DNA of 64,000 nucleotides from Escherichia phage naam: sequence record MN850630.1; one strand, 5' to 3'. Below are positions 23,335 through 37,710 of the stretch, one piece after another (position 1 is the first letter of the stretch; each line of letters begins with the position of its first letter). The notes under the pieces were generated by a model. The model was not told where the DNA came from. It saw only the letters and a program-made list of their open reading frames with translations, and did not search any database. The translations under genes and the position numbers were made by a program.

Positions 23335-23524
23335 GCTTAAATCTGCATGGAACATCGCTGTGGGGGACGAGATCCGCATCCCAGGTGGAAAGACCATTAT
23401 GAAGATATCACGTATCGAGTATGAAGGTGATCGTGTATTTCATATCTTTGCAGAAGATGGTCGAGAAATTTATATACAGGCAGGCTCTCATATCTATATC
23501 CATAAGAAAGGGGACGACAAATGA
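23321..23524 (+). CDS. hypothetical protein
   Basis: AAGGAGG RBS; overlaps the previous gene; 67 aa. Confidence 0.5.
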   Translation: MQMFKLKSAWNIAVGDEIRIPGGKTIMKISRIEYEGDRVFHIFAEDGREIYIQAGSHIYIHKKGDDK

Positions 23525-23853
23525 CAGAGATCATCGTTTCAACTGCAGGGTATGTATTCCTGACAATCATTGCGTTGGCTATTCTGGTGGCGGTGTATGG
23601 ATTTGTTATCCTGCCTATTCTTGAGACATTTAGCTTGTGTCGGTGTTGGAGAAAAGCTTACGGACCACAACCGTGGAAAGACTGGTTTCATTTGGTGCGT
23701 ATAGCGTTCTCTTATGCCTATGATCACTCCAGCAGTGCATGCGTAACCGGGTACCATGCCTACAACTGGAACTGGGAAGGGCTGGGGAGATGGACTGTTA
23801 CAAAAACTATACCCTTACGGTTGTATAAAGGAAAGAACACACTGGGAGCCTGA
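23521..23853 (+). CDS. hypothetical membrane protein
   Basis: Hydrophobic helix VFLTIIALAILVAVYGFVILPIL; ATGA coupling; 110 aa. Confidence 0.55.
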   Translation: MTEIIVSTAGYVFLTIIALAILVAVYGFVILPILETFSLCRCWRKAYGPQPWKDWFHLVRIAFSYAYDHSSSACVTGYHAYNWNWEGLGRWTVTKTIPLRLYKGKNTLGA

Positions 23854-23897
23854 TATTTTAAGTTATCAGGTTGCCAGAGATCAGGAGGATTTCTAAA

Positions 23898-24110
23898 ATG
23901 GATTTCCTCCTTTTGATATTTTACCTACCAGGATATTTTAAAATCCTTAGAAAATCAGAAAATGGATCGAAAACTAAAATGGATTTTTCAGAGCAGGCAC
24001 GACGAGATGAACCACTCATCCTATCGTCTGCACCATATTCCAGACCACCATTACAGATTTCCCGCACATGCTCACACCCTTCTACTAGAACTTCCCCCAC
24101 TTACCCTTGA
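23898..24110 (+). CDS. hypothetical protein (doubtful)
   Basis: ATG after AGGAGG, but the ORF sits in a repeat-rich region and the RBS doubles as a hairpin arm. Confidence 0.25.
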   Translation: MDFLLLIFYLPGYFKILRKSENGSKTKMDFSEQARRDEPLILSSAPYSRPPLQISRTCSHPSTRTSPTYP

Positions 24111-24457
24111 CCTTTTATAGTAATAATCCAACCACTACCTTGAAGTTGTGGCGCAGCTTTCCAAGTACTCGATCTGTTTTTCGTTTCAAAGATTGAATTT
24201 TCTGAAAATTTTTCTCGATAAATTTCTCAGTACTCGATCTGTTTTTCGTTTTCTGAATCGGATTTTCTGGAAATCGTTCCGGCTCTCGACCTGAAATTTT
24301 TGGGGACGAAATCGATTTTTCGTTTTCAGAAATGGATTTTTAAAATTTCTATATGGGAATATTTTAGTGGATACTATTTTATAGGAAATTGTTACGGAGG
24401 GTAATTAGCGTGCTAATTAAATTTATTAAATGCGAGGAGTTCTCATTTAGAATTTTG

Positions 24458-24470
24458 AATGATAATCATT
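24458..24470. promoter_or_regulatory. Fur-box-like palindrome AATGATAATCATT
   Basis: Perfect 13-bp palindrome matching the core of the Fur consensus GATAATGATAATCATTATC (15 of 19 with flanks); a second GATAATGATAAC copy lies at 24588..24602. Confidence 0.3.
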
Positions 24471-24487
24471 CTCGTTTGCAGAATAAC

Positions 24488-24529
24488 GGGCAGGCCCGGT
24501 GATTGTCTCCCGGCCCCTGTTGCCCCGGC
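24488..24529 (+). repeat. GC-rich conserved element (core GGTGATTGTCTCCC)
   Basis: Related copy at 24621..24670 (GGTGGTTGTCTCCCCC) and an inverted copy at 33922..33947 (GGGGGAGACAATCACCAGGCCTGCC). Confidence 0.5.
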
Positions 24530-24866
24530 TTGTTATTATAGTATCACACAGGACAAAGAAGGCAAGGATTTTTTGCATAAATTTTTAAATGATAATGATA
24601 ACCGTTCTCATTTTATGCAGCGCCCATCCCCGGTGGTTGTCTCCCCCGTCACCGGTGCCTGCCGTCCTTTCGATAGGTATATTGTGCCACCTGGCGGGGC
24701 CGCTGTCAACACCTTTTCAAAAAATTTTTCTAACCTGATGCGCTAACCGTTGCAACCTGGCGGGGCCAGCCTGGCAGGACCTAACTGACCAGGTGGGAGA
24801 GGGTGAAATCTTGCAAACCTGGTAGGCCCATGCTGTAGGGTAAACAATTGAAGAGGAGGTACAAAA

Positions 24867-25109
24867 ATGAAAGGTAATGCTACTCACCTGGGAAATGTAG
24901 CGATTAATGACGCTGAGGCTATCACCCTGGTTGAAAAGGCTATGGCGGGAGCGTTGGAACATAAAGAAGAGTACGAAAAAATGATGGTTAACCTGGCAGG
25001 GGCGGCGGCTGGAGAATTCTGCCCAAAAAATAATTCTAACCAATGGTTGACAGCTCGGATAGTTCTGTTATTCTTATCCTCGCAAGGTGAACAACACCAC
25101 ACTAATTAA
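24867..25109 (+). CDS. hypothetical protein
   Basis: GAGGAGG RBS; 80 aa. Confidence 0.6.
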   Translation: MKGNATHLGNVAINDAEAITLVEKAMAGALEHKEEYEKMMVNLAGAAAGEFCPKNNSNQWLTARIVLLFLSSQGEQHHTN

Positions 25110-25126
25110 CAGAGAGGATAAAAATC

Positions 25127-25324
25127 ATGAACGCCTACGGAATTAAAGTACGTCGCAACACTCGCCAGGCCGTCACCGATCAAATGGTTTGCCAGGTGGA
25201 CGTAACCATCAACAACGGGCAAGGCCTTTATAAATTCCGTCGCGGTCAGAGCTATACCCGGCAACAGCTTAATCGTTGCGCCCTGACAAAAGGCCAGATC
25301 AACCACTGGTTTAATAAAAAATAA
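25127..25324 (+). CDS. hypothetical protein
   Basis: AGAGGA RBS; 65 aa; basic. Confidence 0.55.
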   Translation: MNAYGIKVRRNTRQAVTDQMVCQVDVTINNGQGLYKFRRGQSYTRQQLNRCALTKGQINHWFNKK

Positions 25325-31239: not shown

Positions 31240-31524
31240 ATGGCTATTGTCACCGTTGGCGATGTAGTGGAAATGGAAGCAAAATACTTAAAAGCGGGTA
31301 TGCATATCCTACGGAATGATCAAGAATTGTTATTAACGATGGTAGACTATAATCCCGGCCAGGATTATCCAAGCATCGACTACTTTTTTGAGTATGTTGA
31401 TGAAGAATTGAAAGAGGATGAGACTTATCAGGGTGAATTCTGCAATTTCTTTTGCCCTGATGAGGTTGTAAAAGTTATCTATCAACCTGGCGTACCTTTC
31501 CCGCTGCACGCTATCAATAAATAA
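31240..31524 (+). CDS. hypothetical protein
   Basis: TAGGAG RBS; 94 aa; followed by hairpin GGCGGGGCC gaaaa GGCCCCCGCC. Confidence 0.6.
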   Translation: MAIVTVGDVVEMEAKYLKAGMHILRNDQELLLTMVDYNPGQDYPSIDYFFEYVDEELKEDETYQGEFCNFFCPDEVVKVIYQPGVPFPLHAINK

Positions 31525-31586
31525 ACCTGGCGGGGCCGAAAAGGCCCCCGCCTGAAATTATGAAAAATAAAAAGAGGCAAACTATC

Positions 31587-33837: not shown

Positions 33838-33971
33838 ATAAAAGTGTTTTGGTACTGATTTTGGGGTTGACTTGTTCGGCCCCTTTTGCTATTCTTATTA
33901 AACGGGCGGCACTTGGGAACAGGGGGAGACAATCACCAGGCCTGCCTGTCATATAAGAACTATAAAAACCG

Positions 33972-34000
33972 TTGACATCTGCCATGGGGTGAGGTAACAT
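33972..34000 (+). promoter_or_regulatory. sigma70-like promoter with leader hairpin
   Basis: TTGACA, 17-bp spacer, TAACAT; leader GGGGCAAAAGTGCCC. Confidence 0.5.
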
Positions 34001-35235: not shown

Positions 35236-35260
35236 AAGGGGCTTAGGCCCCTTTCTTTTT
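35236..35260 (+). terminator. rho-independent terminator ending the plus-strand block
   Basis: Stem aaggggc / gcccctt then TCTTTTTG. Confidence 0.65.
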
Positions 35261-35878
35261 GTCTGCTCTTCCCCCTACCATAAACGGCCCTACCTGGCAA
35301 GTGGAATAATTGACGAGCCATCAATCCTACACACTGTACAAACATACATGTAAAATAGCTATTGCATAACCTTTCATTGTGTGGTAGCGGTGCTATTTTT
35401 TACCAGTTTTCCTTCCAAAATTGCACGTAATGCCGCTATTGCACAAATTTTAACCTGATGCACATCTCCAATATCTTGTCAACAACTAAAAATCTTTATA
35501 AGTCATACACTTACACAGCATCGAAAGCGTGTTCTACGCGAAAAATCGAGTATAACTATAGCCGCCAGATCTCAGAATTCACGTACGCACGCCATTCTAT
35601 AGCCTGCAAAGTATTTATTCCAACCACAGAATAACGGAATAGTCAATACCTGCATAAAATAATTATTAGTGTAAACTGCATAACATAAATCAGCTCAGGT
35701 GTCAACATTTTTCGTAAACAGTCCGAAATTATCACGATGAGTTATCATAAACAGAGAAATCTTTAGTCGTCTAATGTTTACTGTACATTACTATACTGAC
35801 TGGAATCATTAGATGACTAAGAGAAAGATAAGAAATAATTAATAATGTAATTGTTTTACCTGTAACAATAAGGCAACT

Positions 35879-35898
35879 ATGCAAACGAATGGCATGGC
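35879..35898 (+). repeat. 20-bp direct repeat ATGCAAACGAATGGCATGGC, copy 1
   Basis: Exact second copy at 36140..36159. Confidence 0.7.
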
Positions 35899-36015
35899 GC
35901 GACGGAGTCGCGACATAATATAAAAGCAGTAACCATCACCCCCGTGATAGTTTGTCTGCAATCTATTAATCAGATCATAGTTGCCTTGTATTCAGTTAAT
36001 CATGACATGATAAGC

Positions 36016-36047
36016 AAGGCAACTATAGATCTTCTAATAGTTGCCCT
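36016..36047. repeat. palindromic site GGCAACTAT-N10-ATAGTTGCC
   Basis: Further copies of the arm at about 35870 (AAGGCAACTAT) and 35977 (ATAGTTGCCTT); operator-like or iteron-like. Confidence 0.55.
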
Positions 36048-36170
36048 GCTTTTATATTATGTCATAGAAACACCCGAAGGGGTGACCAAAGGTCACCTGG
36101 CATAGCCAGTGAAAGATTATTAACTTGCTAATAGTTATCATGCAAACGAATGGCATGGCTGATTATCGGT

Positions 36171-36257
36171 GTGTAAACAGTCAATCATGTAAATGGTTAG
36201 CATGTGAACAATCAGAAATGTAAACAATCCAGTGTGTAAACTAATAGGTGTGTAAAA
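36171..36257 (+). repeat. cluster of (G)TGTAAAC(A) repeats
   Basis: GTGTAAACAG, ATGTAAACAA, TGTGTAAAC and GTGTAAAAG within 90 bp; further GTAAACAG at about 35714, 36511 and 37221, and on the minus strand at about 36368. Confidence 0.55.
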
Positions 36258-36851
36258 GTGTCATGTTGTGTCAGTTAGGTCACATTATGTCAGACAAGTT
36301 TTTCTCCTCTTTGTCAAGTGCTGCATGAAAAATTTACAAGCTTGTATGGTAGCATTTTTGCGGCCCTGTTTACATTCAGTGTTGTATGTATAATCCTTGT
36401 TGTGTGGGCGTTTAGACGTCTGGACGGTCAGAAGTCTGCAGGTTAATATCTAATCTATCGGCTGCTAACTATATCCCACACAAATAGTAAGAAATATAAT
36501 TGTTATGTGCGTAAACAGTAACCCATGTTATCAATCCCTGTATGTATCGCCAGTGGTGCGCATAATGGGTATTATGTTAAATTGCCCGTAATGATAACAG
36601 TTCTCACAATGATAGGTATTCTCATTCACCCCCACAAGATAGGTTGCAAATGTTGTGCCACTGTGTGAACGGCCTGGCCTATTAATTTGCCTCACTGCCT
36701 TGATATTTGAGAATTATTATAAGAATGAGAAGTATTCCCATTTCGTCCGCCTGGCAGCACTCCTGTAGGTCAGGTCAAAATCGTGGTAGAACTAGACCTA
36801 TCCGGATATTTCTGGCTGACTCTTCAGGTCTGTGTGGGAAAAGCCAACCTC

Positions 36852-36866
36852 TCCGGCGGGGCAGGG
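36852..36866 (+). repeat. 15-bp GC-rich direct repeat TCC(C)GGCGGGGCAGGG, copy 1
   Basis: Second copy at 36999..37015; CTCTTCAGG recurs at about 36820, 36904 and 37351. Confidence 0.5.
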
Positions 36867-37710
36867 GGAGGTCAATTAAAAAATTTACGTGGTGTATGAA
36901 GCGCTCTTCAGGTAAGGCAGGTATTATGGGATGAAACCCGCTTCAGGCAATGATATTTGTGGGTGTGATATTTGCTGGAAGGCCAGATATGACGGGACTC
37001 CCGGCGGGGCAGGGGTAGTACAGACAGGGAAAATATGGGGATGTAGTTGGGGAAATTGATCAGACAGGTAGAGTATGGAATATGTTACAGGTATGTTAAA
37101 TATGGAGGTTGAATATCTGTAGGATTTGTGTGTAAAATCAAAGACTTAAGGGGTGTTGTGGTATTTTCTATAAATAATTCAAGTTTAATAGGCAATATTT
37201 GTCTCTATCCGCTTTGTGTGGTAAACAGATTCAGATGAGATTGGTTTACAAGTGTATACATAATATACAAATTAAAGATACAAGAAACCCCCCTCCCCCT
37301 TCGGCTACCATTCACCTTTTCCTCTGACTGGTACTTAAACACTTATTCAGACTCTTCAGGTTATCACCCATATATCATATGGCAGTGACTGGTGTCCTCC
37401 GGCCCCTCTTTCGTCACCCGTCCGCTTCGCCATGCTAATGCCATAGCTAATGGTTCGGTTGTTCACCCTGTTCACTCAGGTGTATCTCTATACCCCTTCA
37501 AACCGAAGAGAACAGAAAACCCGAATTACTCGGTAAAAGAAAAGAGAAGAACTTAATTTTATCAGGATAGGCAAGAATGTCAAGGCATGACTGCTCACTA
37601 AACAAGCAAACAGTCATGTGTGGGAGGTAAGTGATTGTGGTGGTAGGAAATTTAGTTGAAAGATGTGTTATAGGTGCTTCCAGCACTTTAGCCGGGCAGC
37701 TAATTGTGTG

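Follow-up and report, generated by a model that had tools for sequence, protein, structure and literature searches.

What is the role of about 1 kb of DNA that lies between genes of a virulent coliphage and seems to encode nothing itself? The question is raised by positions 23,854 to 24,866 of a 64,000-nucleotide (nt) stretch of the genome of Escherichia phage naam (MN850630.1). The whole stretch is called the window here, and the 1-kb region in it the control region. In a first-pass annotation, made from the letters and their open reading frames (ORFs), tandem units that combine a palindrome with a GC-rich element were described in the control region, and a regulatory switch, a pair of small RNAs, or an iteron-type origin was proposed. 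On the sequence evidence, the regulatory switch is the best-fitting of these options. We tentatively read the region, with a confidence just short of an even chance, as an early control region that would be gated by the host Fur protein and respond to iron, with putative Fur-type operators on and beyond convergent promoters.

Palindromic boxes resembling Fur operators

The palindromes concerned are listed below; strands are given where they were assigned, here and in the later lists.
24429-24447: box 0, degenerate palindrome AATGCGAGGAGTTCTCATT, preceding box 1 by 29 nt
24458-24476, plus strand: box 1, AATGATAATCATTCTCGTT, putative operator of unit 1
24591-24610: box 2, GATAATGATAACCGTTCTCA, putative operator of unit 2
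36590-36742: three Fur-like boxes (starts at 36590, 36608, and 36724) inside the homologue of a 459-bp terminal repeat, 36293-36751

The palindrome AATGATAATCATT is present at 24458, where it had been placed before; the second one, placed at 24588, is off by 3 nt, as GATAATGATAAC starts at 24591. The resemblance to a Fur box that had been claimed for both is confirmed. When compared with the Fur consensus GATAATGATAATCATTATC, 24455-24473 (box 1) matches at 15 of the 19 positions and 24591-24609 (box 2) at 16, and these are the two best matches in the 64 kb. With at most three mismatches allowed, box 2 is the sole match in the window, where 0.04 would be expected. Bona fide Fur sites match the 19-bp consensus at roughly 11 or more of the 19 positions. 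Box 1, written as TGATAATCATTCTCG, also matches the 7-1-7 inverted repeat TGATAATnATTATCA at 13 of 15 positions, and phages PVP-SE1 and Hena1 have a perfect palindrome of this form, TGAGAATCATTCTCA. The 16-mer ATAATCATTCTCGTTT at 24463-24478 is identical in the fhuA promoter/operator of E. coli K-12, and the ryhB operator, which reads GAATGAGAATGATTATTA, has the left half GAATGAGAAT in common with the box; both fhuA and ryhB are Fur-repressed genes. By sequence, the AT-rich palindromes resemble Fur operators.

The distribution of the boxes was examined with the pattern AATGAKAATNATTCTCA, two mismatches being allowed, in a total of about 160 kb (the window and the rest of phage Gotham). Seven matches were found in the window, as opposed to 0.25 expected, and all seven are confined to two non-coding places, the control region and 36590-36742 in the terminal repeat. 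The first box-like palindrome of that repeat starts 9 nt from the genome end. The single match in the remaining 97.5 kb of Gotham, inside a gene, is at chance level. Among 24 distinct boxes, A1, T3, G4, A7, T12, T13, and T18 are invariant, and in every phage examined the 19-bp palindromes form arrays of one to four, with starts exactly 29 nt apart. A metagenome scan with a box-plus-GAAT pattern yielded both phage relatives and bacterial loci. Among the latter, the gene for the zinc metallochaperone AztD (NCBIfam, 427.7 bits at a cut-off of 400) is preceded by the box in high-GC contigs, and in a low-GC contig the box is located about 30 nt upstream of an ABC-importer operon; the pattern is therefore one that occurs in Fur-family operators.

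Conservation and non-coding nature of the region

Megablast with 23500-25300 retrieved 121 phage records, 112 of which span 80 % or more of the query, with identities of 80-97 %. As essentially all matches are to rV5-like coliphages (Vequintavirus), the source phage of the window is, by sequence, one of these. Sixteen records named 'Campylobacter phage' (MG065635, MG065662, and others) match the coliphage region and 15 of them list Campylobacter jejuni as the host; the four listed individually are 91-96 % identical to the coliphage region, and their host labels look doubtful. Host-derived DNA was rejected as a source of the region, since a blastn search of 5,426 E. coli genomes with 24430-24720 gave no match and only identities of operator length.

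In annotated relatives, the control region is flanked on either side by a run of small plus-strand genes to which no function has been assigned. The nine flanking ORFs gave no Pfam match, and their PHROGs assignments are all of unknown function. Within nine aligned Vequintaviruses, the mean pairwise identity over 24200-24700 is 93-99 %, compared with only 62-72 % in the flanks (23800-23900, 24100-24150, and 24750-24850) and about 90 % in the next gene. Using sensitive blastn, approximately 24417-24574 could be recognised at 70-88 % identity, usually in unannotated DNA, in PVP-SE1, GAP31, and 4MG (Seunavirus), KpS11 and Mydo (Mydovirus), F2M1E and POP15 (Certrevirus), Hena1 (Henunavirus), and phAPEC8 and ESCO13 (Stephanstirmvirinae).

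The layout, which consists of an intrinsic terminator, three direct repeats, 19-bp palindromes, the GC-rich core GGTGRTTGTCTCC, and a convergent sigma-70 promoter, recurs throughout the aligned loci of five other Vequintavirinae genera and of metagenomic relatives; in phAPEC8-like phages it is found in part. The aligned loci carry the string TTGAATGAKAATCATTCTCATTTGCAGAATRRC, then a GC-rich segment in which GGCA and GGTG(A/T)TT are invariant, and an extra conserved non-coding stretch in the place of which Vequintavirus has a second box-plus-core unit. Across Vequintavirus, Seunavirus, Mydovirus, Certrevirus, Henunavirus, and Phapecoctavirus, phages that infect E. coli, Salmonella, Klebsiella, Cronobacter, Pectobacterium, Erwinia, or Proteus, no other non-coding stretch is as well conserved as the box together with TTGAAT...GAAT. 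Conservation of the paired units in relatives is evident from the alignments. The diversity sampled is that of GenBank phages and a metagenome scan; a scan of IMG/VR gave only 2 loci.

Two further features were seen in the other genera. A non-coding stretch of about 110 nt (TCTTTACAAATCTTTACAAA ... CTACCGGCGATCCACCTTCC ... GTTAGCCCCGCCTTTTCGCCGTGGGGTGGCG) is almost invariant over two subfamilies in the non-Vequintavirus genera; it is located at about 2610-2745 of the PVP-SE1 locus L003, with homologues in loci L004, L005, and L011-L016, and includes a hairpin ACCAGG...CCTGGT with a loop of variable length. The stretch had no match in Rfam. In Seunavirus and Mydovirus, a minus-strand gene of 60-63 codons (Pfam DUF7170; 2794-2976 in L003, 2817-3008 in L005, and 1828-2013 in L011) is present immediately to the right of the conserved region and, on its own strand, is upstream of the leftward promoter. 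The window has no counterpart of this gene.

That about 1 kb lacks a credible gene, as had been stated earlier, is supported by the fate of its two ORFs, both of which fail conservation tests in the Vequintavirus alignment. The variable sites of ORF 24459-24746, which the first-pass annotation already took for probably non-coding, are spread evenly over codon positions 1, 2, and 3 (10, 11, and 9 sites). Its C-terminus is frameshifted by changes in homopolymer length in four of the nine relatives and its ATG sits within the box palindrome. Internal stops interrupt the minus-strand ORF 23921-24100 in six of the nine, and alignments show that other genera keep the same DNA without these ORFs. From these comparisons, the region is non-coding and both ORFs are spurious. 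The idea that it encodes small proteins, from ORF 24459-24746 or others, could draw on the annotation of such ORFs in the records of JeffSchatz, APECc02, and EduardKellenberger and on their grouping as phrog_14993 and phrog_35702. The PHROG matches exist because some submitters annotated these ORFs. Given the flat codon-position variation, the frameshifts, the start codon inside a palindrome, the internal stops, the conservation of the DNA elsewhere without an ORF, and the lack of any Pfam match, coding for small proteins is considered a negligible prospect. The public gene calls over 23921-24746 (e.g., bas55_0098-0100, FDG86_gp036/037, and VVA60551) are very probably spurious, as are the two PHROG families, so that several GenBank records and PHROG families place very probably spurious proteins inside the region.

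Promoters around the boxes and the proposed mode of control

Putative promoters were found in both orientations.
24455-24484, plus strand: putative rightward promoter of unit 1 (TTGAAT at 24455-24460, an 18-nt spacer with box 1, CAGAAT at 24479-24484)
24709 to 24681, minus strand: convergent sigma-70 promoter directed leftward into the units (TTGACA and CACAAT, 17 nt apart, a TG preceding the -10)
24565 to 24535, minus strand: possible second leftward promoter facing unit 1 (TTGCCT at 24565-24560, a 19-nt spacer, TATAAT at 24540-24535), from alignments and not called by the scan

The leftward promoter at 24681-24709 reaches 10/12 in the scan and is the best promoter match of the control region. 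An equivalent scoring 9-12/12 is present at the same place in 20 of 20 phage sequences, with conserved hexamers and diverged GC-rich spacers, and this predicted minus-strand promoter is taken as real. The second leftward promoter, at 24535-24565, is a possible one suggested by the alignments; it is weak in the window and better in other genera (TTGATC/TTGCAA, 16-17 nt, TATTAT/TATATT).

From this anatomy we infer Fur binding, promoter activity, a direction of control, and a downstream effect as follows. The upstream operon would end at an intrinsic terminator, followed by about 300 bp of presumably curved DNA carrying three repeats of about 70 bp and then by two tandem units of about 135 bp, each with a putative 19-bp Fur-type palindromic operator and a GC-rich core. 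In unit 1, the operator would occupy the spacer of a weak sigma-70-like rightward promoter, while the well-conserved leftward sigma-70 promoter, possibly together with the second one, would face the units. With plentiful iron, host Fur-Fe2+ would occupy the operators, by which either the rightward promoter would be shut or the leftward transcripts would be blocked; with scarce iron, the operators would be free. Host iron would then set the balance of convergent non-coding transcription and of read-through into the neighbouring early genes.

A number of observations weigh against control by Fur. The rightward promoter TTGAAT-18-CAGAAT scores 8/12, below the threshold of the scan; in four phages the -10 of unit 1 reads CTGAAT, without the key A at position 2; and inspection of the sequence gave no acceptable plus-strand sigma-70 promoter or -10 beside box 2. 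Pfam and PHROGs provided no iron-related annotation among the nine ORFs around the control region, and the proposed mechanism gives no role to the GC-rich core or the three repeats. In addition, 21 of the 24 distinct boxes have a C at position 14, where the Fur consensus has an A, the secondary boxes keep the outer AATGA...TCATT with degenerate centres, and the strict 29-bp spacing of the boxes is not a multiple of the 6-bp Fur hexamer. The last three properties also fit a phage-encoded dimer.

The palindromes could indeed be operators of a dimeric DNA-binding protein of the phage itself, either an early repressor or a genome-end protein. The likeness to Fur sites would then be the result of convergence on an AT-rich palindrome, and the same wiring would respond to the clock of the infection and not to iron. 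The box consensus AATGAGAA-N3-TTCTCATT with its preference for C at position 14 and its variable centre is consistent with such a protein. So are the arrays of one to four boxes at a fixed distance, which are like phage operator arrays, the additional copies close to the genome end in the terminal repeat, and the lack of iron-related cargo nearby. However, the primary box TGATAATCATT is a canonical Fur site that shares its 16-mer with the fhuA operator, it is unchanged across phages of seven host genera that share Fur, in which a phage protein and its site could have drifted together, and no candidate regulator was identified. A phage-encoded regulator is regarded as an unlikely explanation, which deserves to be kept in mind.

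GC-rich cores and the question of small RNAs

Three GC-rich elements were located in the window.
24487-24528: element 1, CGGGCAGGCCCGGTGATTGTCTCCCGGCCCCTGTTGCCCCGG, with core CCGGTGATTGTCTCCC at 24496
24620-24659: element 2, GCGCCCATCCCCGGTGGTTGTCTCCCCCGTCACCGGTGCC, with core CCGGTGGTTGTCTCCC at 24630
33883-33952, minus strand: element 3, inverted and without a box, with core CTGGTGATTGTCTCCC (found with nhmmer)

The GC-rich core that had been reported to follow the palindrome is thus found at 24496, and a second copy at 24630. The existence of two tandem units also stands, with a spacing of 134-136 nt instead of the 110 nt given before. A profile of unit 1 orthologues matched, in nhmmer, unit 1 itself (E = 4e-25), unit 2 (E = 2e-6), and the third copy at 33890-33952 (E = 1e-5). 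The core 16-mer CYGGTGRTTGTCTCCC has exactly three copies in the window, as opposed to 0.10 expected, and none elsewhere in Gotham. The third core copy lies between a terminator (33863-33883) and a promoter (33972-34000), approximately 9.4-9.9 kb from the box region; both the pairing and the distance are conserved in phAPEC8-like phages.

Each unit consists of a box and then a GC-rich segment, an arrangement that would suit two small structured regulatory RNAs, one per unit, transcribed from box-controlled promoters and regulated by iron like RyhB. A stretch of 12-13 nt, ATTGTCTCGCGAT, is identical in the ryhB promoter/5' end and, downstream of the box, in PVP-SE1, L039, and phAPEC8 (p of about 0.001 per comparison, the comparison having been chosen post hoc), and a similar GCGA...UCGC (GCGA...CCCTCGC) hairpin can be drawn in ryhB and in the phage segment after the box. 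Of this ryhB-like identity the window holds only ATTGTCTC; the PVP-SE1 site is at about 2550-2580 of locus L003, and L004 and L039 also have it. Two structured small RNAs are not supported, because no conserved fold, no unusual stability, and no Rfam match was found. Folding z-scores of the GC-rich elements range from only -0.2 to -1.8; for element 1 the two strands give -0.2 (plus) and -1.8 (minus). In RNAalifold, no consensus structure across genera was obtained in either sense (-1.05 and -2.0 kcal/mol). A search of the window at the Rfam gathering thresholds gave no match to a known family, and in searches by E-value all matches in the region and six related loci were sub-threshold and at chance level, none of them on the units or their homologues; a tRNA or a known RNA family at the region was ruled out, as none was found. 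Moreover, neither unit is followed by a terminator, unit 2 has no rightward promoter, the orientation of the third copy is opposite to that of the genes, and G-to-A and C-to-T changes in the alignment point to conflicting strands. A pair of small regulatory RNAs is considered quite improbable, and the GC-rich core is more likely a DNA-level or promoter-proximal signal than a structured RNA.

Terminator, direct repeats, and a possible origin of replication

The remainder of the control region, from left to right, consists of the following features.
23883-23922, plus strand: intrinsic terminator of the upstream operon, hairpin AGGAGGA...TCCTCCT (7-bp stem) followed by the U-tract TTTTGATATTTT / UUUUGAUAUUUU
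23890-23990: cluster of AAAATGGAT(T/C) motifs, with copies at 23895, 23959, and 23976 and a fourth at 24329
23990-24150: variable C-rich spacer (GC skew -0.34 to -0.41, 68-80 % identity) with the spurious minus-strand ORF 23921-24100
24155-24360: direct repeats, three in number and about 65-74 bp each, whose T-tracts are helically phased, from repeat-family detection
24745-24866, plus strand: variable leader of the next operon, with TTGC(A/C)ACCTGGCGGGGCC repeats and the ribosome-binding site GAGGAGG (62 % identity, with indels)
24811-24816, plus strand: TTGCAA of a putative promoter in the leader, followed by 17 nt and TGTAGG (TATAGG in relatives)

The hairpin at 23883-23922 folds at -15.5 kcal/mol (z = -2.7), and an A-to-G change in relatives keeps its pairing as G-U on the plus strand only. 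It is the predicted terminator of the upstream operon; a simple scan missed it because its loop exceeds 8 nt. Reiteration of short motifs, as claimed before, holds locally: all three exact copies of AAAATGGAT lie within 23895-23986, and the stretch 23950-23999 is 93 % conserved. It does not hold window-wide for AAATGGAT and GATTTTCTG, with 12 matches versus 8.9 expected and 10 versus 6.3. An R-loop in the C-rich stretch 23990-24150 was also considered and was dropped because the skew is not conserved, PVP-SE1 having no equivalent C-rich stretch. Of the motif CCTGGCGGGGCC, a third occurrence, at 31520-31550, is within the GC-rich intergenic hairpin GGCGGGGCCGAAAAGGCCCCCGCC, which is probably a terminator; the copies at 24690 and 24756, inside the control region, form no such hairpin.

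The exact 23-nt direct repeat AGTACTCGATCTGTTTTTCGTTT at 24164 and 24229, reported in the first-pass annotation, was recovered and forms part of the three longer direct repeats. These comprise 47-57 aligned nt and start at 24155, 24220, and 24294, i.e., with spacings of 65 and 74 nt. The same triple repeat, spaced 63-78 bp, is present in PVP-SE1, GAP31, KpS11, F2M1E, and Hena1. Tandem Repeats Finder reported only one weak 12-nt array, at 24198-24225. The sequence TCGATAAATT at 24215-24224, a single site noticed post hoc, is an exact match to a reported high-affinity H-NS motif and is invariant in the nine Vequintaviruses.

These repeats also argue for a different function, namely an origin of DNA replication, possibly a transcription-activated one. 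An initiator or an architectural protein would bind the repeats of about 70 bp, the AT-rich 24340-24450 would unwind, the flanking promoters would supply an activating or priming transcript, and the boxes would be accessory. Points in favour are that the three repeats are conserved as a feature in six genera while their sequence drifts, that the A/T-tract periodicity of the repeat region, reflecting the helically phased T-tracts, ranks 13th of 637 windows (top 2 %), that promoters are present on both sides, and that nucleotide conservation is extreme in DNA that does not encode protein. The GC content is 0.325-0.33 over 24200-24499, although such AT-rich stretches are also normal upstream of promoters. 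The authors of the rV5 genome could not locate an origin (PMC3606486). On the other hand, there are only three repeats, with lengths of 65-78 bp, and no iterons of 17-22 bp; the near-match to a DnaA box, GTATCCACT, is not conserved in the Vequintavirus alignment; the cumulative GC skew keeps rising across the region without a switch; and Pfam and PHROGs revealed no initiator gene beside it. GATC is not enriched, with 4 per kb in the window versus 5.5 per kb genome-wide. With regard to the iteron-type origin proposed in the first-pass annotation, three conserved repeats and an AT-rich stretch are present, and short iterons, a conserved DnaA box, and a skew switch are not. The more extensive repeat-rich region next to the terminal repeat is no worse a candidate. 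An origin at the control region seems rather doubtful, if conceivable.

Position relative to the genome ends

Vequintaviruses have short terminal repeats of 458-459 bp (PMC6563267, PMC7471380). By homology, the annotated 459-bp terminal repeat of phage Gotham maps to 36293-36751 of the window, in reverse orientation. The control region is for this reason not the physical genome end, and a direct terminal repeat at this place was ruled out, the Gotham homologue being 12 kb away. By the same mapping, the control region, which would belong to the early-gene arm, is about 12.3 kb (9 % of the 137-kb genome) from the left physical end, and the genes in between are transcribed toward that end. The genome map of rV5 shows a box marked 'non-coding', the region meant by it not being stated (PMC3606486).

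The homologue of the terminal repeat is itself embedded in a larger ORF-poor region, 35250-37700, toward which the genes to its left and right are transcribed. It contains ATGCAAACGAATGGCATGGC twice exactly, a perfect 18-nt inverted repeat at 35912/36046, and GTGTGTAAAC motifs, and is a candidate packaging or origin region.

With its distance from the left end and its ORF-free, repeat-rich, and conserved DNA, the control region might also be a boundary signal for stepwise DNA entry or packaging, closing a terminal segment of about 12 kb in the manner of the T5 injection-stop. The related inverted element is 2.8 kb from the same end, and sensitivity to daunorubicin is common to Vequintavirinae and T5-like phages (PMC13250531). 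This function is deemed very unlikely: rV5-like phages are not known to inject their DNA in two steps, the terminal repeat measures 459 bp and not 10 kb, and a boundary signal leaves the Fur-type palindromes and the promoters without a role.

Relation to known systems and significance

The Fur-repressed promoters of fhuA and ryhB are the closest known counterparts of the boxes. They have in common with the phage region a 19-bp AT-rich palindrome matching at 15-16 of 19 positions, the sequences ATAATCATTCTCGTTT and GAATGAGAAT, a box between -35 and -10 (putatively, in unit 1), and arrays of several boxes. The phage boxes, as putative Fur sites, differ in that they lie in the non-coding DNA of a virulent phage with no iron gene near, favour C at position 14, are always 29 bp apart, and occur again in the terminal repeat.

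Phage-borne promoters wired into the host Fur regulon have been described before. The stx1 promoter of phage is Fur-regulated. A Fur box is also found upstream of sitABCD in lambdoid prophages (PMC6969025). Those phages are temperate and the gene so controlled is cargo that benefits the lysogen, whereas the boxes described here are located in an early control region and at the genome end of virulent phages and are conserved over two subfamilies.

The face-to-face promoters pR and pL of coliphage 186 form a switch in which convergent sigma-70 promoters, tens to hundreds of bp apart and with an operator on one of them, permit transcriptional interference. In naam, a similar arrangement of putative promoters is seen, with transcripts that would be non-coding, no lysogeny decision, and no adjacent repressor gene. 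The transcription-activated origins of T7 (primary origin), T4 (oriF/oriG), and ColE1 likewise have promoters beside AT-rich, repeat-bearing non-coding DNA; the repeat architecture of the control region, a candidate origin at most, is different and there is no skew change. Phage T5 has an injection-stop region that is also ORF-free, rich in repeats and palindromes, and separated from a physical end by about 8-9 % of the genome length. The control region has no sequence similarity to it and belongs to a phage with a short terminal repeat, and two-step entry is not known for rV5-like phages.

Fur-controlled promoters and Fur boxes before cargo genes of temperate phages are well known (PMC6969025). 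What appears to be new is the conservation of putative Fur-type operators in a non-coding control region and in the terminal repeat of virulent phages. No earlier report of this was found, and the searchable literature yielded neither a description of the region nor an account of the transcriptome of these phages or of Fur sites in them.

It is possible, if doubtful at present, that the arrays in the control region and the terminal repeats of rV5-like and phAPEC8-like phages are operators for host Fur that serve in gating or in Fur titration. If they gate, convergent non-coding transcription, and hence the early genes or the start of replication, would follow host iron. If they titrate, amplified genomes would draw Fur off the host regulon, by which iron uptake would be derepressed to the benefit of the iron-dependent ribonucleotide reductases of the phage.

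In the gut, where these broad-host-range phages are common, enterobacteria are normally limited for iron; the phages are also used in therapy cocktails. To our knowledge, few strictly lytic phages read host physiology via a host transcription factor. If Fur does gate the early programme, the non-coding DNA of these phages would contain a compact regulatory module, and plating and killing efficiency could depend on iron. Whether by gating or by titration, a sensor of host physiology would be built into the lytic programme and would have been conserved over two subfamilies.

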